Shown: positions 1 to 6,651, counted from the first letter of the stretch. The stretch: 6,755 bases of DNA from a virus (IMGVR_UViG_2711768074_000016:1-6755), one strand, 5' to 3'. Notes: generated from the sequence alone by a model not told the origin. Numbers and translations are program-made.

Positions 1-225
1 CTGTTCAGCGGCAAACCGATCCCCGACAACCGGGAAAACATCACTATTCGTCTGGATGATCACATTCAGTCTGTTCAGGGTAAAGAGAGCTATGAAGATG
101 AGATGTTCAGCATCAGATACTTTAAGAAGGGCTCCGCGCACATCACGTTCAGAAAACCGGAACTGGTTGATCGGCTAAATGACATCATTGCGAAGCATTA
201 TCCGGGGCAACTATCAGCCATCTGA
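1..225 (+). CDS. 3' end of a hypothetical protein (5'-truncated by the window edge); C-terminal 74 aa ...FRKPELVDRLNDIIAKHYPGQLSAI*
   Basis: Open frame 1 runs from the window edge to TGA at 223-225. It is convergent with the minus-strand operon and followed by a hairpin terminator. No family recognised from the fragment. Confidence 0.45.
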   Translation: MFSGKPIPDNRENITIRLDDHIQSVQGKESYEDEMFSIRYFKKGSAHITFRKPELVDRLNDIIAKHYPGQLSAI

Positions 226-323: not shown

Positions 324-324
324 A

Positions 325-400
325 TGGTGGCCCCTGCTGGACTTGAACCAGCGACCAAGCGATTATGAGTCGCTCGCTCTCACCACTGAGCTAAAGGGCC
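325..400 (-). tRNA. tRNA with anticodon CAU, tRNA-Ile2 (lysidine-type, ileX/ileZ-like) rather than tRNA-Met; 76 nt including encoded CCA
   Basis: The reverse complement folds as a canonical cloverleaf: acceptor GGCCCTT/AGGGGCC, D-stem GCTC/GAGC, anticodon stem AGCGA/TCGCT with loop CTCATAA, T-stem GCTGG/CCAGC with TTCAAGT loop, then ACCA. It is near-identical to E. coli ileX as I remember it, with a few substitutions typical of prophage copies. Confidence 0.88.
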
Positions 401-440
401 GGGAGCCGCATAATAACGACGCGTAATTAATTCTTCAATA

Positions 441-1499
441 TCATCCGTTCTGGCTGACTAAATCCTGTACTTCCCGAACCGTCTGCTCAAAACGTTCAGT
501 CTCCAGCTCAACGCCAATTGCACGACGCCCGAGCGCCAGTGCCGCTTTCACTGTCGAACCCGACCCCATGAAAAAATCTGCAATCAGGTCACCCGGACGA
601 CTGCTAGCGCTGATTATCTGCTGCAGCATTTCTGCCGGTTTTTCGCACGGATGTTTCCCGGGATAGAACTGCACCGGTTTATGCGTCCACACATCGGTAT
701 ACGGCACCTGCACCGTCACGCCAAAATACCGCCGCAGATGCTTATATTCACTCAGCAGTTCCATATACTGCCGGTTCAGCTCACTGTATGTGCTGACCAG
801 TTGGTAATGGGACTTTTCCAGTTCTCCCCGCTGATGTTTCTCTTCTGCCACCCGGGCAAACAGCGACTGTAATTTCAGATAATCGCTTTCGTTCGGTAGC
901 TGCCACTGACTGGCACTGAACCAGTGCGACACCATGTTTTTCTTTCCTGTGGCATCTGCAATCTGTTTTGCCGTTATCCCCAGGGCCGCGCGCGCATCAC
1001 GAAAGTAAGAAATCAGCGGGGCCATCACATGCTGTTTCAGTGCACTGCCCTTCGCCGCATACCCGGCATCTTTCGGACGATACGGCCCCTGATAATGTTC
1101 CGCGAACAGAATGCGCTCTGTGGCGGGGAAATACGCCCGCAGGCTTTCCTTGTTGCATCCGTTCCAGCGTCCGGACGGCTTCGCCCAGATAATATGGTTC
1201 AGCACACTGAAGCGTTCACGCATCATGATTTCGATATCAGATGCCAGGCGATGACCACAGAACAGGTAAAGACTTCCGGCAGGTTTCAGCACCCGCCAGA
1301 ACTGCGCCAGACACTGGTCCAGCCACTTCAGGTAATCATCGTCGCCCTTCCACTGGTTATCCCAGCCCTCGGGCTTCACTTTAAAGTATGGCGGGTCTGT
1401 GACTATCAGATCGACAGAGTTTTCCGGTAAGGTCTGGATAAATTCCAGGCAATCAGCGTTGATTAACTCACAACTGGATATTTTTACAGTATTAGCCAT
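441..1499 (-). CDS. DNA methyltransferase, beta-class (N6-adenine or N4-cytosine), probable phage orphan methylase, 352 aa
   Basis: Motif IV (VTDPPYF) lies near the N-terminus at residues ~33-39 and the AdoMet-binding motif I (DFFMGSGST) near the C-terminus. That permuted order is characteristic of beta-group amino-methyltransferases. No adjacent restriction endonuclease gene is visible. The RBS is weak. Confidence 0.85.
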   Translation of the reverse strand: MANTVKISSCELINADCLEFIQTLPENSVDLIVTDPPYFKVKPEGWDNQWKGDDDYLKWLDQCLAQFWRVLKPAGSLYLFCGHRLASDIEIMMRERFSVLNHIIWAKPSGRWNGCNKESLRAYFPATERILFAEHYQGPYRPKDAGYAAKGSALKQHVMAPLISYFRDARAALGITAKQIADATGKKNMVSHWFSASQWQLPNESDYLKLQSLFARVAEEKHQRGELEKSHYQLVSTYSELNRQYMELLSEYKHLRRYFGVTVQVPYTDVWTHKPVQFYPGKHPCEKPAEMLQQIISASSRPGDLIADFFMGSGSTVKAALALGRRAIGVELETERFEQTVREVQDLVSQNG

Positions 1500-1649
1500 A
1501 GATCAATAAGCACTTCTCTGATAGGCTCATACCGCTTTTGCGCAAAGCAGATGGGCCTGAGGTTTGCTTGTGACCCCAACGCATGAGCAGATGGCTGGCA
1601 GGTGCCGCTAACACCCACCAGCCGCCCATTACCACAAATAAAAAAGCCT

Positions 1650-1970
1650 TCACTGAGGAAGGCGTCTGTAACAACCGAACTGATAATCTGCCAGACCCGC
1701 CATAACAAGCTGGGTCAGTATTAACTGGCAGCGTTCGCGTGAAAGATAAGTGTTCTGCGCAATTTCCCCGGCGGTCGCCGGTTCGGTGACGCTTAATTCA
1801 TTAAACACCACTCTGGCGGTTTCGGTCATATCCTGCTGTTTTAGCATGCCTTTTTCCATTTTCCGGTTAACGTGACATACCAATAACTCTTGTCGAAAAA
1901 GCCAGCAAGTTGAAAGACCGGTATTAGCAACCACCAGCGCGTTTAACGCCCCGTGCCGTTTTTCAGTCAT
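1650..1970 (-). CDS. Hypothetical protein (106 aa), coding status uncertain; C-terminal half has a helix-turn-helix-like character
   Basis: Longest minus-strand ORF between the Q-like gene and the methylase. Its ATG directly abuts the T-tract of the upstream terminator and has no Shine-Dalgarno. Two alternative-frame ORFs overlap it (1484-1708, 1492-1674). Confidence 0.3.
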   Translation of the reverse strand: MTEKRHGALNALVVANTGLSTCWLFRQELLVCHVNRKMEKGMLKQQDMTETARVVFNELSVTEPATAGEIAQNTYLSRERCQLILTQLVMAGLADYQFGCYRRLPQ

Positions 1971-1999
1971 AAAAAAACCCGCAAAAAGCGGGCTCTTTC
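1971..1999 (-). terminator. Intrinsic terminator immediately downstream of the Q-like gene (tR'-like)
   Basis: On the minus strand: stem cccgc/gcggg with a 5-nt loop followed by seven T residues (gcccgctttttgcgggttttttt). About 80-100 nt downstream of the Q-like stop, matching the short pR'-tR' arrangement of lambdoid phages. Confidence 0.55.
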
Positions 2000-2071
2000 A
2001 AATGTCCATGTCTGCTATTCGCCTCGCGGTACAGCTTTGCGAAGCTTACCGGAATTGAAGCAGTTTTTACG

Positions 2072-2638
2072 TCAAAAAGCAATAACTTTTTTCTCTATAC
2101 CAAAAGCCATAACCATTGGTTTGTACAAAATAAATTCTGCCACCTTTAGCCAATGCTCAATGCGTCTTTCACAGGTTCTTAAACTCCATTCCGGATGTGC
2201 ATCATTCAGCAGTTCAGCCATTTTGCGCTTAGTCATCCCCCGCCCCACATAACGCTGACTCAGAACATTGAGCAGCCCGGGATAACCTGCCAGTACTTCA
2301 CCAATAACCCTGTCGATTATTAACGCCTCTGAATCGGTACAATGTGCCAGCCAGCTTTTTTGATTGCCGTTGATCATATCCCGCAAAAAAGCCTCAAGTT
2401 CAGGTTTGTCCAGACCCGCTTTTTTCATCCTCCGGAGCGCCTCGTTAATTGCCGTTTTTGTCAGCTTTTTAGAGGTCAGTAATTGGTTGAACATATTTCC
2501 CGTCTTACCGTCGCCAATATACGACCAACGCCCCCACATACGCAGTTTCCCCTGGATCCAGACACTTTCCAGCGTTTTCAGGCGTAAATGCTCACCGCTT
2601 TTGCCTGTAATTTCCGGGTATATCATATTTATGCTCAC
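2072..2638 (-). CDS. Putative late-gene antiterminator Q-like protein, 188 aa
   Basis: Position immediately after rusA and before a strong terminator, as in lambdoid nin-Q regions. The LRMWGRW motif resembles the RWGAW motif I recall in Q-like proteins such as DLP12 QuuD. The track start at 2638 is GTG and overlaps the rusA stop; an in-frame ATG at 2626 is an alternative start. Confidence 0.5.
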   Translation of the reverse strand: MSINMIYPEITGKSGEHLRLKTLESVWIQGKLRMWGRWSYIGDGKTGNMFNQLLTSKKLTKTAINEALRRMKKAGLDKPELEAFLRDMINGNQKSWLAHCTDSEALIIDRVIGEVLAGYPGLLNVLSQRYVGRGMTKRKMAELLNDAHPEWSLRTCERRIEHWLKVAEFILYKPMVMAFGIEKKVIAF

Positions 2639-2994
2639 TCACTTTCAATTTTGTAAATCTTCACGCCCAGCCGCCCACCAGAAACGAGCTGACCGCGCAC
2701 AATATTGATTTCATCAAACTGCTCGTCGTCTATAAGTAGTCCGGCATGCGTAAGCGCATCCAGTGGTGCCTTCAGGATATTGTCCAGGTCGCGGCGGCGC
2801 TTATCCGGTGGCTCTGCAATAATCTTTATCGCCAGCCTTCCGGACAGGTTTAATTTCAGCCACTGCTGGCGAACAATAAGTGCCACATCCCGGCGATAAC
2901 GCTCACCGGCTTTTGACACAAAATATGTGCTGCCACGACGTCGCCAGTAGGTGTTCACCGTCGGCGGGTAAGGCAAAACAAACTCTATACGCAT
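2635..2994 (-). CDS. rusA: Crossover junction endodeoxyribonuclease RusA (Holliday junction resolvase), 119 aa
   Basis: The translation has the RusA hallmark RRRDLDN acidic catalytic motif and is collinear with E. coli RusA, which is ~120 aa. Good RBS (aagagg, 6-nt spacer). Stop overlaps the start of the next gene. Confidence 0.9.
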   Translation of the reverse strand: MRIEFVLPYPPTVNTYWRRRGSTYFVSKAGERYRRDVALIVRQQWLKLNLSGRLAIKIIAEPPDKRRRDLDNILKAPLDALTHAGLLIDDEQFDEINIVRGQLVSGGRLGVKIYKIESE

Positions 2995-3006
2995 CAGTAA
3001 CCTCTT

Positions 3007-4056
3007 TTACCCGAGCACGCCGGTTGCAAAGGCGCGATCAAGAAAACGAAAAATTAAATCAATCTGGGAACCATGCTTTTCTTCAAATGCCAGCGGATCA
3101 GCATGAAGTTCGTTGTGATGCTCCCGGCACAACGGTAGCGTGAAAATATCGTGGGCTTTTGTCCCTATTCCGCCCTGACCATGACCAATCAGGTGATGGG
3201 GATCGTCGGCTGGCTTACCACAACACGCACACGGCTGTGTCTTTACCCAGCGCGTATATTTCTCATTTACCCAACGGCGACGTTTAGGTCGCTTCATTAA
3301 AGATTCCGGAGACTCCGGATCAACAGCAATGCTGACCACCGTCTTTTCCTGTGGCGGGTTCTGTTGCTGGTGGGCGTGAGGCAGCGGCGCAAGATTTTTT
3401 GTGCGCTGTTTCAGTATGCTGGTGGCGGTCTGCTCTCCCGGTACGATGTCGCTTTCACGGTACATTGAGCGGATTTTTTCCGCACGCAACCCCAGCGAAC
3501 GACGTAATACCGCTTCCGGTAGCGCGTCCGCCACCTGATTGCGGATCGCCCACCAGGATAATTCAGCCAGCGATAATTCCCGTTCCTGCGAGCCATTCAT
3601 TGCATGGCGTATGACGTCAATCATCCATGCAGACAGGTTTTGGTGAGCAAGTTGCCCGAGTGATTCGGAGGTCTGGTCGCGCAGCTGGTTGTCGCAGTGC
3701 CAGCACAACACCATTGCGCCGGTACCATAACGATGTATGACGGTTTCACTGTGATGGTAGTCACCATGAGGCCACTGGCAGGATTTGACATGACGCAGGA
3801 GCCAGTCAGACAGTGCGCCAGCGCCGCCAGCAGCACGAATCACACGCTCATCGCTGAAAAATGGCAGTAATGATTTATCCTCCGCCAGCGGCTGGCGAAC
3901 GGCAGGGACGACTCCGGACGGCAGACCGCGCATGCTTTTCGGTTCCGGCTCCACCAGCACCCTGCCGCAATGAAAAACCGGCAGTGATTCGCGACCGGGC
4001 TTAAGGACCACCAGCCCGAGTTCCGGTACCAGAACAGGTCGAAGTAATACCCGCAC
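3007..4056 (-). CDS. ydfU: DUF968-family prophage protein (YdfU-like), 349 aa, with a C-terminal Cys/His HNH-like motif
   Basis: Same length and N-terminus (MRVLLRPVLVPELG...) as the Qin prophage YdfU that I recall. C-terminal CACCGKPADDPHHL...CREHHNELH cluster. Tightly packed with both neighbours (1-nt gap to the upstream stop, 12-nt gap to rusA). Confidence 0.8.
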   Translation of the reverse strand: MRVLLRPVLVPELGLVVLKPGRESLPVFHCGRVLVEPEPKSMRGLPSGVVPAVRQPLAEDKSLLPFFSDERVIRAAGGAGALSDWLLRHVKSCQWPHGDYHHSETVIHRYGTGAMVLCWHCDNQLRDQTSESLGQLAHQNLSAWMIDVIRHAMNGSQERELSLAELSWWAIRNQVADALPEAVLRRSLGLRAEKIRSMYRESDIVPGEQTATSILKQRTKNLAPLPHAHQQQNPPQEKTVVSIAVDPESPESLMKRPKRRRWVNEKYTRWVKTQPCACCGKPADDPHHLIGHGQGGIGTKAHDIFTLPLCREHHNELHADPLAFEEKHGSQIDLIFRFLDRAFATGVLG

Positions 4057-4057
4057 G

Positions 4058-4336
4058 TTACCTCCAGATGCGTTGCTGGAATGTGCGGGACAGACGCGGT
4101 GGGCGTTCGGAGTAAGGAAGCCCGACGGAGATTATCCAGTGACGGTAGTCGAGGCTAAGGGCTTTTTTAACCTCGCATCCGCGCCTGCGGTAACACTGAA
4201 TGAGCCATTCGGCCTGTTCTTCAGTGCATGGGGGATGCTGGTACCAGTCTGACTTAAATGCGTGAGAATACCGCTCGTGCGTGTGGGCAAGAACGGTCGA
4301 ATTATCATGATTGTAATATTTTGCGTTGCGTGCCAT
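4058..4336 (-). CDS. Hypothetical prophage protein, 92 aa
   Basis: Strong RBS (GGAGG, 6-nt spacer before ATG at 4336). Stop immediately precedes the DUF968 start, suggesting translational coupling. No family recognised. Confidence 0.6.
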   Translation of the reverse strand: MARNAKYYNHDNSTVLAHTHERYSHAFKSDWYQHPPCTEEQAEWLIQCYRRRGCEVKKALSLDYRHWIISVGLPYSERPPRLSRTFQQRIWR

Positions 4337-4402
4337 CGGTTTCCTCCGGCGGCACGGTGTTACTCAGCGGGAGTTCAGCCCCGCGCAAGATTGTAGATGA
4401 GT

Positions 4403-4654
4403 TTATTCTTCTGAAAAAGCAGAAAAGCCAGCTTTTATTCCGATCTCTTTCAGTGCCTGTAATGAAGTGACAAACTCACCTTCGCGCAAGATAAATCCGT
4501 CTGTCACTCGACCATCCACAAAATTAATTAACGCAGCCCCATTCTTTCGCAAACACACAATGCGGTAATGACTAACAATATTTCCATTTTCAACGCACAC
4601 AGCATAGAGGCCATCTTCACAAAAAATTTTACGCAGTTCTTCGATGTTCATCAT
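4403..4654 (-). CDS. rem: Rem-like small prophage protein, 83 aa
   Basis: Same length, MMNIEELRK N-terminus and position (between hokD and the DUF968 gene) as the Qin prophage rem gene as I recall it. RBS GGAAGG with a 6-nt spacer. Confidence 0.65.
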   Translation of the reverse strand: MMNIEELRKIFCEDGLYAVCVENGNIVSHYRIVCLRKNGAALINFVDGRVTDGFILREGEFVTSLQALKEIGIKAGFSAFSEE

Positions 4655-4770
4655 CAGAATCCTTCCGGATAATTAGCTCTCCCCTTTAAGGGACCATCCC
4701 TCTTATCCCTGCGCGCTACTTAAGTATTTTTGATTCTATTCCGACACCGTCCAGAACTTCAAATGCGTTG

Positions 4771-4800
4771 AAAATAAAAACAAAAACCCGCCGAAGCGGG
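4771..4800 (-). terminator. Intrinsic terminator of the hok mRNA
   Basis: On the minus strand: stem cccgc/gcggg with a 4-nt loop followed by tttttgtttttatttt. About 70 nt downstream of the hok stop. Confidence 0.65.
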
Positions 4801-4870
4801 TTAAGTGCGGGTGCGTTGAGGATGCCTGACACATCAGCGGTGGCGAGGGATTTCTCCCCCGCCTGGTCTC

Positions 4871-5026
4871 TTACTCCTCAGGTTCGTAAGCTGTGAAGAC
4901 AGCGACCTCCGTCTGGCCGGTTCGGATTCGTACCTCGCAGAGGTCTTTCCTCGTTACCAGTGCCGTCACTATGACGGTTAAACAGATGACGATCAGGGCG
5001 ATTAACATCGCCTTTTGCTGCTTCAT
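4871..5026 (-). CDS. hokD: Hok-family type I toxin (HokD/RelF-like), 51 aa
   Basis: The translation MKQQKAMLIALIVICLTVIVTALVTRKDLCEVRIRTGQTEVAVFTAYEPEE matches HokD as I remember it. RBS AAGGAG upstream of ATG at 5026. Single transmembrane helix followed by a periplasmic tail. Confidence 0.85.
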   Translation of the reverse strand: MKQQKAMLIALIVICLTVIVTALVTRKDLCEVRIRTGQTEVAVFTAYEPEE

Positions 5027-5083
5027 AGCCTGCTTCTCCTTGCCTTTCGGCGCGTAAGAGGCTAACCTACGTTTGTGAAGCAT
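4871..5083 (-). CDS. mok-like reading frame: in-frame N-terminal extension of hok (70 aa) that gates hok translation
   Basis: ATG at 5083 with GAGG 8 nt upstream. The 19-aa extension MLHKRRLASYAPKGKEKQA parallels the MokC extension in K-12, which is likewise in frame with its hok. Confidence 0.45.
   Translation of the reverse strand: MLHKRRLASYAPKGKEKQAMKQQKAMLIALIVICLTVIVTALVTRKDLCEVRIRTGQTEVAVFTAYEPEE
5040..5068 (+). promoter_or_regulatory. Candidate promoter for a Sok-like antisense RNA (-35 TTGCCT, 17-bp spacer, -10 TAACCT)
   Basis: Hexamers read on the plus strand inside the mok/hok overlap, positioned so that a transcript would run antisense across the mok start codon and SD. Sequence pattern only. 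Confidence 0.25.
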
Positions 5084-5152
5084 AGATTGGGCCTCAGATT
5101 AATGTTAAGCGTCTTGCAGGACGCGTAATGTTAACTGGGGCTTTTCTCTGTC
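5075..5152 (+). ncRNA. Putative Sok-like antisense RNA complementary to the mok translation initiation region
   Basis: Inferred from the candidate promoter plus a downstream hairpin (gcgtc...gacgc at 5111-5126, enclosed by gcctcag/ctggggc) followed by ttttctc. Ends are not defined. Confidence 0.2.
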
Positions 5153-5237
5153 TGCCTTACGGTGGCATGCCCGAGGCAGACAGCCTCAAGCACCCGCAGC
5201 AATTCTACTTAACTCCCGTCACCTCGCCAATATAAAA

Positions 5238-5327
5238 TCAATCAGAAAGGCGATCCATAAGAACAATAGCAAGACAATAAATTGCCACTACAGCCGCAAT
5301 AGCCAGCGCGCATTTGAGAACCAGCAC
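5238..5327 (-). CDS. Possible small hydrophobic protein, 29 aa (VLVLKCALAIAAVVAIYCLAIVLMDRLSD, GTG start)
   Basis: Consensus AGGAGG Shine-Dalgarno 5 nt upstream of GTG at 5327. Single predicted transmembrane segment with a charged C-terminus. Starts ~70 nt downstream of the SIR2-like gene stop on the same strand. Below the ORF-track size cutoff; unverified. Confidence 0.25.
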   Translation of the reverse strand: MLVLKCALAIAAVVAIYCLAIVLMDRLSD

Positions 5328-5397
5328 GATAACCTCCTGTATTGGACGTACACCAGCTCTGATAAATATGAGGCTGCCTCTTTAACTTCGCATTGCG

Positions 5398-6429
5398 CTA
5401 CCAATCAATAAAATCAGTGATGTTATCCAACCTAATTACAGTAACTTCCCGTCTCAACTGGTTTTTCCAATATATCTCACGAGCGTTTTGTTCACCAGCA
5501 CCGCTCCACTCAATTACTCTTAAAGGCTTAGAGGTTAGGTAAGGTCGAATAAGCAGGTTAAGGTGAATATCGAGACCAGAGTAACCAAACAATATTATTT
5601 CTTCTGATTCAAATAATGCAAACTGCAAATAATCCCAGTACGTAGAAAGAACATTAGATGCTGCTATAACTGACGGTTTTCTTTTTATATGAGTTAACAC
5701 TATATGCTCACTAGGTTCATCTATGTCAAGAGTAAGTTGTGAGCGTGAAAGTTTTAAAACATTTTCATGCTGATTAATAAATAGTGGTGAACCATGCAAG
5801 TGCAAATAATAACCAAACCTACGATTGTATTTCCGTTCGAGCGCTGCAGAGGAAAATCCGTGGCTTAGCATCCCATCAACTAAAACCCCATCATACCCGT
5901 TGAATATATCATTATCTATGAATGAATTGTATAATAATTTGTCATAGTTTAATGTCGCGATATGTGAGTGTGTGTTCTTTACAAACTCCACAAGCGCATT
6001 TTCGAATCTTTGTGGCAAACCTTTATCGTAATTATGCAACCTGGTTGCAACTTTGTGAATATAAGTGGCGGTAATTTTGGGGAAGTTTAGTCCATCTTCA
6101 GTAAGCCAATGCACGTTCCCCTCTCCAATTTGAGCAAGAGCTTTACAATATGTGACAGCCTGGTGAAGGGTATCCAACTCATGTTCTCCTTCTGGTGGAC
6201 CTTGCCGCTGAAGACAACGCTCGATAAGTTGCTTGTGGATATCTTTTAAAAAATTGGGGCGATGCCAAATTTCTTCCAACGCTCTGTCTAAGGAGAAGTG
6301 AGCAGGATCTAAAGCCATACCGAGACCGTTGCCGAATATTATTAATTTTCTTGCCATATAGGGGGACTCATATTGGAATAACGCTGGATAGCGTCGCGCG
6401 ATACGCTTAAGTTTAGGATTAATAGACAT
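5398..6429 (-). CDS. Stand-alone SIR2-like domain protein (SIR2_2/ThsA-like fold), candidate NAD+-depleting antiphage defence effector, 343 aa
   Basis: The translation carries the four SIR2_2-type motifs in the correct order and spacing: a Rossmann glycine-rich loop LIIFGNGLG (res 29-37), TLNYDKLL (res ~158-166, putative catalytic Asn161), LHLHGS (putative catalytic His212, codon at 5794-5796) and ILFGYSGLD (res ~278-287). Compare ThsA: FAGAGLS, TTNYDRL, MHGD, LFVGFSFTD. The gene is AT-rich with many rare ATA and AGA/AGG codons. The start is uncertain: 6429 has a weak RBS and the in-frame ATG at 6357 is an alternative. Confidence 0.6.
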   Translation of the reverse strand: MSINPKLKRIARRYPALFQYESPYMARKLIIFGNGLGMALDPAHFSLDRALEEIWHRPNFLKDIHKQLIERCLQRQGPPEGEHELDTLHQAVTYCKALAQIGEGNVHWLTEDGLNFPKITATYIHKVATRLHNYDKGLPQRFENALVEFVKNTHSHIATLNYDKLLYNSFIDNDIFNGYDGVLVDGMLSHGFSSAALERKYNRRFGYYLHLHGSPLFINQHENVLKLSRSQLTLDIDEPSEHIVLTHIKRKPSVIAASNVLSTYWDYLQFALFESEEIILFGYSGLDIHLNLLIRPYLTSKPLRVIEWSGAGEQNAREIYWKNQLRREVTVIRLDNITDFIDW

Positions 6430-6651
6430 TCCGTTTGATTACTCTTGTTATTACAAACTTGCATGCAAAGAAGCCCAAGCTGTTAGGTAAACAGAGACCG
6501 CAGTGGCAAGATAATCTAGATATAGCCTATAAAATCCAACAACAAATAGCGGCCTGTTTTCTATGACTTTTCTTTTCCCTAAATATCGCTTATCTAATAA
6601 AATGCAATAATGTATTGCACAGTATTTAATGTGTATTAATATAGATAAGTA

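Follow-up and report, generated by a model that had tools for sequence, protein, structure and literature searches.

The 6,755-nucleotide stretch of DNA analysed here (the window) very probably contains an intact type I toxin-antitoxin cassette, hok/mok/sok, belonging to the hokD/hokW lineage and located in the early-right (nin) region of an E. coli lambdoid prophage that resembles Qin; homology would give the cassette the standard mechanism of such systems. Our observations concern its sequence elements, two alternative predicted folds, its homology and its distribution in populations. A sequence-only reading had proposed a complete module, and every element that it listed was found in the window: the hok ORF, an in-frame mok extension with its own Shine-Dalgarno (SD) sequence, a minus-strand terminator, and plausible sequence features of a plus-strand sok promoter and hairpin. 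The interval given for the module, 4771-5152, is too short, with the 5' end of the mRNA at ~5195 and the promoter reaching 5230, so that the tac element and the 5' hairpin were left out. The cassette is an already known and very common module, and hok/sok itself is nothing new, being a textbook type I toxin-antitoxin of which a prophage version, hokW-sokW, has been tested experimentally.

All substantial ORFs of the window are on the minus strand, and their arrangement reads as the nin region of a Qin-like prophage, with the cassette oriented like the rest of the early-right operon. Beyond rem follow, in order, a 92-aa ORF, the DUF968/ydfU gene, rusA, a gene for a DUF1133 protein, a DNA methyltransferase gene and a tRNA. 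Positions 324-6651 are 99.9% identical to E. coli FDAARGOS_1059, and the segment 4660-5400 occurs with 100% identity in three complete genomes.

Table 1 Features of the hok/mok/sok cassette and its neighbours in the window.
Feature	Position	Strand	Basis	Details
SIR2_2-like gene	5398..6429	-	ORF call	
29-aa hydrophobic ORF (candidate gene, unannotated)	5238..5327	-	ORF call; sequence	GTG start, AGGAGG SD
hok promoter (candidate)	5202..5230	-	promoter scan	-35 TTGGCG 5230-5225, 17-nt spacer, -10 TAGAAT 5207-5202
Full-length hok mRNA (predicted)	4778..5195	-	5' end, Rfam model start; 3' end, terminator T-run	~418 nt
tac element	5184..5195	-	pairs with fbi in full-length fold	GGGUGCUUGAGG, first 12 nt of mRNA
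5' hairpin	5148..5183	-	Rfam match and fold	adjoins tac
ucb (upstream complementary box, anti-SD of mok)	5137..5143	-	folds	
mok SD	5092..5095	-	read from sequence	GAGG, 8 nt before mok ATG
Hypervariable stretch	5070..5091	-	cassette alignment	22 nt around mok ATG; target of predicted single-stranded Sok 5' tail
mok frame	4871..5083	-	ORF call	70 aa, in frame with hok; 19-codon N-terminal extension, shares hok stop
hok SD	5036..5039	-	read from sequence	GGAG
hok toxin gene	4871..5026	-	ORF call; PF01848 HOK_GEF, E 1.2e-23	51 aa; match 1-42/42
fbi (fold-back inhibition) element	4809..4821	-	full-length fold	complementary to tac
Intrinsic terminator of hok mRNA	4775..4802	-	terminator scan	GC-rich stem-loop 4802-4785, then T-run
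rem	4403..4654	-	ORF call	
sok promoter (candidate)	5040..5068	+	read from sequence	-35 TTGCCT 5040-5045, 17-nt spacer, -10 TAACCT 5063-5068
Sok RNA (predicted)	5075..5151	+	fold	~75 nt; 5' tail complementary to mok start, hairpin 5089-5142, U-rich tail

When translations were compared, the Hok peptide was 100% identical to K-12 HokD/RelF, and its RefSeq name is HokD (WP_000813254.1). The mok frame was open and its extension 19 codons long in every pattern-matched cassette, with codons 2-5 varying freely. In a preprint (bioRxiv 10.1101/2025.08.07.668861), overexpressed coding sequences of all homologs studied, HokD among them, are reported to cause lysis, with HokB and PndA of R483 as exceptions. 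A-to-I editing that changes a Tyr codon to Cys is stated for hokD in the literature, and HokD-type peptides may need it to be fully toxic.

The hok leader is matched over the complete Rfam model RF01794 ('sok'; model positions 1-157, minus strand 5195..5021) at 116.2 bits, compared with a gathering score of 59, and at an E value of 9.9e-27, which places the match far above chance. Because this model is written in the hok-sense orientation and terminates at the hok AUG, the hit certifies the hok leader and not directly an antisense transcript. Upstream of it, the -10 box of the candidate hok promoter and the sequence downstream of that box were conserved in all aligned cassettes; conservation of the -35 region was limited to the lineage in which homology runs to 5380.

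Folding of the predicted full-length mRNA gave a minimum free energy (MFE) of -173.7 kcal/mol (z -6.5). In this predicted closed form, 5195-5184 pairs with 4809-4821 in both the MFE and the centroid folds, and the GCC of ucb (5141-5139) pairs with a GGC of the mok SD region, sequestering the SD. When the 3' end was trimmed in silico to 4826 or 4835, an open form was obtained in which the 5' end, tac, re-pairs with 5137-5143 and the mok SD pairs with a box just downstream of the mok AUG. Across 97 unique cassettes the tac sequence was invariant and its pairing with fbi was kept in 94-96, changes on the fbi side mostly still pairing as G-U wobbles. The pair 5181/5150 of the 5' hairpin is compensatory, being G-C in 15 and A-T in 78 of the same 97. 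A closed-to-open switch built on tac/fbi, ucb and dcb has been described for R1 hok mRNA, as summarised in PMC9841398, and the predicted folds reproduce that model.

On the opposite strand, the region 5075-5152 folds at -33.6 kcal/mol (z -5.8), a value that none of 200 shuffled sequences equalled, which is consistent with the hairpin of a putative Sok RNA. The candidate sok promoter in front of it was absent from the output of a generic promoter scan of the window, because its -10 box is a poor consensus match (3/6 positions); its -35 box is conserved across cassettes. The experimentally studied sokW has the same -35 and -10 boxes, and a change of TAACCT to GAGCCG (primers YO-421/422 and YO-597) is the toxic 'pro-less' (promoter-less) construct, in which mutation of the -10 box unleashed toxicity (Takada et al. 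2021, PMC8621323). The position of the promoter in the window is identical to that of the sokW promoter, and the sokW Northern probe YO-592 (PMC8621323) corresponds to window 5105-5076.

The part of the mRNA that the predicted Sok tail would recognise far exceeds the remaining transcribed leader and the hok ORF in variability. Sixteen alleles of this 22-nt stretch were present in 119 cassettes, always 22 nt long and with the ATG fixed, and divergence per column was 0.19-0.22 within it versus 0.00-0.10 in the remaining transcribed leader and the hok ORF. Such variability would fit selection for Sok specificity among co-resident cassettes of one genome.

Cassettes of this kind are widespread. 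Among 5,426 complete E. coli genomes, 4,728 had some match to a query spanning 4660-5400, and coverage of at least 80% of that query was reached in 1,584 complete records. A single genome can have the cassette in as many as 10 places. An identical Hok protein appears in 52,437 blocks of the assembly collection, and this prevalence of both cassette and peptide argues for a maintained function. The cassette is also carried by mEp460, Tritos, Stx phages, PPompW phages and many P1-like plasmids.

In the Qin prophage of K-12, hokD had been placed downstream of relBE, and the order there is indeed relB-relE-hokD-rem-ydfU, in the same orientation as in the window; from the literature, K-12 hokD is co-transcribed with relBE. 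The absence of relBE from the window also held, in that tblastn and short-word blastn with K-12 relB, relE and the sequence extending to flxA gave no meaningful match. An alignment with K-12 had been suggested as a way of mapping the breakpoint: by BLAST, homology runs from rem to 5040, and reading of the two sequences places the junction at 5039/5040, ~14 nt short of the hok ATG. DNA identity between K-12 and the window is 98.7% over the segment that begins with the hok SD and includes rem, and the downstream genes (rem, ydfU) are the same. K-12 hokD has nothing of what lies upstream of the hok SD in the window (mok start, sok, ucb, tac, promoter).

The missing leader can be traced in two related loci, L004 and L007, in which a 3,274-bp segment lies inside the hok leader and the displaced part (window 5214 to 5025, 90% identity) is found 3.3 kb further upstream. 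On either side of this segment stands the same 15-bp sequence, GGAGAAGCAGGCTAT, as a perfect direct repeat; the window has it once (5039-5025), and it includes the hok SD. Its ends are TGT-starting imperfect inverted repeats with 15 of 21 positions matching when scored by hand, a level reached at 2 of 3,254 positions, and are thus suggestive of terminal inverted repeats; an automated repeat search of the K-12-type insert found the 15-bp direct repeat and not the short terminal inverted repeats. The segment encodes a 437-aa ISNCY-family transposase (NF033594, 456 bits) followed by flxA, ydfV, relB and relE, and only its right-hand 2.1 kb is kept in K-12 MG1655. Its right (K-12-type) junction, a sequence that does not occur in the window, was present in 1,168 of 5,426 genomes, and its left junction in 784. 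Judged from these sequences, the K-12 relBEF operon arose by insertion of a relBE-bearing ISNCY-type transposon between the SD and the initiation codon of hok, with the 15-bp duplication preserving an SD and an ATG for hokD. K-12 hokD is therefore a transposon-truncated derivative, and the window has the undisrupted, self-regulated form. A search of the open-access literature, with the older literature covered in part, gave no relevant account of relBE arriving by transposition into hok. This origin of relBEF matters for the interpretation of experiments on K-12 hokD and relBE.

Upstream of the cassette lies a slot with changing contents, whose boundary in the window falls at 5380/5381, 18 nt past the stop codon of the SIR2-like gene. 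Sequence shared up to 5380 is joined elsewhere to other cargo: an FRG-domain gene (L002), DUF7380 with EMARD_N (L009 and L010) or a RelA_SpoT-domain protein (L011). In other lineages the common sequence is limited to the cassette itself, which begins at 5214/5215 and ends at about 4776-4799. The nearest upstream ORFs of at least 120 aa fell into 52 unrelated clusters in 105 phage or prophage cassettes, among them KwaB of Kiwa (528 bits), PD-Lambda-2_C, a KAP NTPase, DUF5677 and QueH. The slot thus often holds known or candidate defence genes (SIR2-like, Kiwa, PD-Lambda-2, RelA_SpoT-domain, KAP NTPase), and since the cassette is conserved and the gene upstream of it highly variable, the cassette is usable as an anchor for mining the cargo of lambdoid prophages. 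A literature search found nothing specific describing a lambdoid hotspot adjoining hok.

The SIR2-like protein of the window matches PF13289 SIR2_2 at 26.1 bits (cut-off 24.5) and gave weak PADLOC hits to Aga_SIR2 (3.8e-06) and PDC-S21 (8e-06); it had no match in the phage collection (tblastn), among PDB sequences or in NCBIfam. Between the cargo boundary at 5380 and hok, a conserved block includes the candidate 29-aa gene, which gave no family hit in Pfam, NCBIfam or PADLOC. The identical sequence has been called in records of E. albertii, under no name but 'hypothetical protein', and comparison showed 4 synonymous versus 4 conservative changes.

By analogy with the systems that have been studied, we infer the transcription, 3' processing, toxicity and physiological role of the cassette as follows. 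A weak promoter (5230-5202) would yield a stable hok mRNA of ~418 nt, in which 5' tac and 3' fbi pair and ucb covers the mok SD, so that, as proposed, the full-length RNA would be neither translated nor bound by Sok. Slow trimming of the 3' end would then take off the terminator and fbi, allowing tac to re-pair with ucb and exposing the mok start. For as long as the short-lived Sok (5075-5151, plus strand) is made, it would pair with this start, block mok and with it the coupled translation of hok, and lead to degradation of the duplex. Once Sok synthesis stops, whether because transcription is shut off, the element is lost or the prophage is induced, the processed mRNA would be translated, and the 51-aa Hok peptide would enter the inner membrane and kill or lyse the cell. 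For a prophage the likely pay-off would be help with lysis on induction, with abortive infection or retention of the element possibly adding to it; R1 hok/sok is cited in the hokW-sokW work as reducing T4 plating by abortive infection. More speculatively, read-through on induction could interfere with the convergent sok promoter and yield 5'-extended hok RNAs, an idea that would fit the RecA-dependent loss of sokW.

Several other explanations of the locus were weighed against this one. The sequence-only reading had taken the cargo at this slot to have been exchanged and hok to have been kept; the slot upstream of hok is variable, as it supposed, but relBE of K-12 is not in that slot, having been inserted inside the hok leader. 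It is accordingly extremely unlikely that the locus is a K-12 relBE-hokD in which the SIR2-like gene replaced relBE at the same place, or a degraded relBE-hokD. Although the shared K-12 gene order and the variability of the slot would suit such an exchange, nothing meaningful resembling a relB or relE remnant was found in the window at the protein (tblastn) or DNA (short-word blastn) level, on which ground the degraded form was rejected, and K-12 homology ends within the hok leader rather than at the cargo boundary. The 3.3-kb displacement of the leader in L004 and L007, the direct and inverted repeats bounding the segment and the neighbouring ISNCY transposase together indicate that relBE came by insertion into hok and not by exchange at the slot. 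It is also very unlikely, if slightly less so, that hok/sok and the SIR2-like gene form one two-part defence system, in which, for example, a transcription arrest brought about by NAD+ depletion through SIR2 would let Sok decay, leaving Hok to complete an abortive infection. The two genes lie side by side in one orientation without a strong terminator separating them, hokD comes next in each of the three SIR2-carrying contexts inspected (L001, L015 and L016), and the reported effect of R1 hok/sok on T4 would be in keeping with such a role. Against this, the SIR2 segment is present in 46 of 5,426 genomes, compared with more than 1,500 genomes in which the cassette has other neighbours, and the upstream genes are as diverse as described above. 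In one of the three SIR2 contexts an IS481 has come between the SIR2 gene and hokD, at a point inside the hok regulatory region or immediately upstream of it, and in a survey hok was enriched in prophages and not near defence systems overall (12% vs 9.4%). A joint system was therefore rejected on distribution: the rarity of SIR2 and the varied neighbours of hok make hok the constant flank of a variable slot, and the SIR2-like gene, adjacent by position and not a partner of hok, is one among the many cargoes that the slot can have.

Structural integrity is no guarantee of activity, and the cassette could be intact yet physiologically silent, a hitch-hiking selfish remnant like the chromosomal hok loci reported inactive, a reading that is the main rival but that we consider rather unlikely. 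In a preprint, chromosomal hokA, hokB and hokC are reported to show neither post-segregational killing nor activation by rifampicin (bioRxiv 10.1101/2025.08.07.668861), and the hok leader has repeatedly been struck by IS elements, by ISNCY in the K-12 lineage and by IS481 in ETEC K_EC180, which suggests that loss of the locus carries no penalty. Recurrent IS inactivation would also suit a locus that is costly because active, however, and the regulatory elements are all intact and conserved across the 97 unique cassettes, while the near-identical hokW-sokW is active as a toxin-antitoxin and alters lysis and phage yield on induction (PMC8621323). A broader role for the functional cassette is conceivable but improbable, namely that in this prophage lineage hok/sok, as the fixed right-hand flank of a defence-gene hotspot, serves as a generic back-stop: a stop in host transcription, caused by phage takeover or by a neighbouring effector, would let Sok decay and Hok kill, and the 22-nt hypervariability would reflect diversifying selection against cross-neutralisation by the Sok RNAs of co-resident prophages or by phage-borne Sok mimics.

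Of the relatives that have been studied, hokW-sokW from Sakai prophage 5 (Sp5, an Stx2 phage) of E. coli O157:H7 comes closest (Takada et al. 2021, PMC8621323). The window and the Sp5-type cassette are 92.8% identical over 417 nt (window 5215-4799) and have in common the leader, the TTGCCT and TAACCT boxes of sok and an in-frame 70-aa mok. The Hok peptide of the window is identical to HokW at 47 of 51 positions, all four substitutions lying in the last 8 residues (FTAYEPEE in the window, FVDYESEK in HokW), and the 22-nt Sok-target stretch is a different allele. The flanks differ on both sides, homology extending from 5215 to 4799, and HokW lacks the terminator sequence and the 29-aa ORF block of the window. 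In the published work, hokW-sokW acts as a type I toxin-antitoxin in which, on RecA-dependent induction, Sok disappears and the toxin appears; it aids lysis, and its deletion halves phage release (PMC8621323).

The prototype, hok/sok (parB) of plasmid R1, has the same architecture and the same predicted RNA switch, with tac-fbi and ucb pairing, re-pairing and a Sok directed against the mok start, and belongs to the same Pfam and Rfam families. R1 mok is read in a different frame from hok, whereas mok of the window is an in-frame extension. The predicted Sok hairpin of the window has ~16 extra nt relative to the Rfam consensus, and the cassette is carried by a prophage, not by a plasmid. In sequence the two are distant: HokW, the close relative of the window's Hok, is 44% identical to R1 Hok (PMC8621323). 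As for the chromosomal hokC/mokC/sokC (gef) type loci of E. coli, the 90%-identity cluster of the 70-aa mok product of the window includes members named MokC regulatory protein, and hokC-type plasmid and chromosomal copies have about 80% DNA similarity. hokC occupies a fixed chromosomal site and is reported inactive in tests in a preprint (bioRxiv 10.1101/2025.08.07.668861), whereas the cassette of the window moves with lambdoid phages and P1-like plasmids.

The relB-relE-hokD arrangement of K-12 type looks, from comparison of the sequences, like the product of a transposition into the leader of hok. In comparison loci L004 and L007 (L007:1699-5002), which carry the full arrangement and both lie outside the window, a 3,274-bp ISNCY-family element with flxA, ydfV and relBE as cargo genes sits inside the hok leader. 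The element has imperfect inverted ends beginning TGT and is flanked in both loci by a perfect 15-bp target duplication, GGAGAAGCAGGCTAT, the insertion site corresponding to window positions 5039-5025. Only the right 2.1 kb of the element remains in K-12 MG1655, where ydfW is the tail of its transposase. The right junction of the element is present in 1,168 of 5,426 complete E. coli genomes; for the left junction the count is 784. A search of the searchable open-access literature returned no description of relBE arriving by transposition into the hok leader. In locus L016 of E. coli K_EC180, the gene of an IS481-family transposase (L016:1544-2689) separates the SIR2 gene from hokD; it lies inside the hok regulatory region or immediately upstream of it and may represent a second, independent IS disruption of that region.

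Within the cassette itself, a 22-nt stretch around the mok start codon is hypervariable; it is the target of the 5' tail of Sok, the predicted plus-strand antisense RNA. This stretch occurred as 16 alleles among 119 cassettes, with a divergence of 0.19-0.22 versus 0.00-0.10 in the remaining transcribed leader and hok ORF, and the mok frame stayed open. The stretch may determine the specificity of Sok among co-resident cassettes.

The gene directly upstream of the hok cassette was extremely variable: in a comparison that drew on loci L017-L136 and L002-L013, the upstream genes of 105 cassettes fell into 52 protein clusters. Among them were Kiwa KwaB, PD-Lambda-2_C, a KAP NTPase, DUF5677, QueH, RelA_SpoT, a Cap4-like/AAA protein, DUF7380+EMARD_N and an FRG-domain protein. 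The conserved hok cassette could thus be used as an anchor to mine prophage cargo. In the window, this position is held by a SIR2-like gene that barely passes the Pfam SIR2_2 cut-off (26.1 bits against 24.5), gave weak matches alone in PADLOC (Aga_SIR2 and PDC-S21), and returned nothing from NCBIfam, PDB sequences or the phage collection. Its RefSeq start lies 24 codons later, giving a protein of 319 aa. The segment carrying it was present in 46 of the 5,426 genomes, with O55:H7, O111:H2 and swine ETEC strains among the carriers.

Features of the window, with positions and strand.
Feature	Position	Strand	Remarks
tRNA gene	328-400	minus	Rfam, 72.5 bits
Tyr47 codon of hok (TAC)	4880-4890	minus	context CTTACGAA; same as K-12 hokD
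Hypervariable stretch around mok ATG	5070-5091	minus	22 nt; target of Sok 5' tail
Unannotated hydrophobic ORF, 29 aa	5238-5327	minus	MLVLKCALAIAAVVAIYCLAIVLMDRLSD; GTG start; AGGAGG 5 nt upstream
SIR2_2-like cargo gene	5398-6429	minus	Pfam; in segment 5381-6651

The interval from the cargo boundary to the predicted hok promoter contains a 29-aa ORF, annotated solely in E. albertii records, as 'hypothetical protein', and without a family match in Pfam, NCBIfam or PADLOC. Its frame stays open in three loci with other cargo at the slot (L002, L009 and L011), where the changes comprise four synonymous and four conservative substitutions, and is truncated in L005.

At the other end of the window, the tRNA gene lies just downstream of a phage DNA methyltransferase gene; the matching genome is annotated in this region with tRNA-Ile, followed by two tRNA-Arg genes.

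Finally, the Tyr47 codon of hok is unpaired in the predicted mRNA fold. In hokD, according to a recent survey, A-to-I editing turns this Tyr into Cys.
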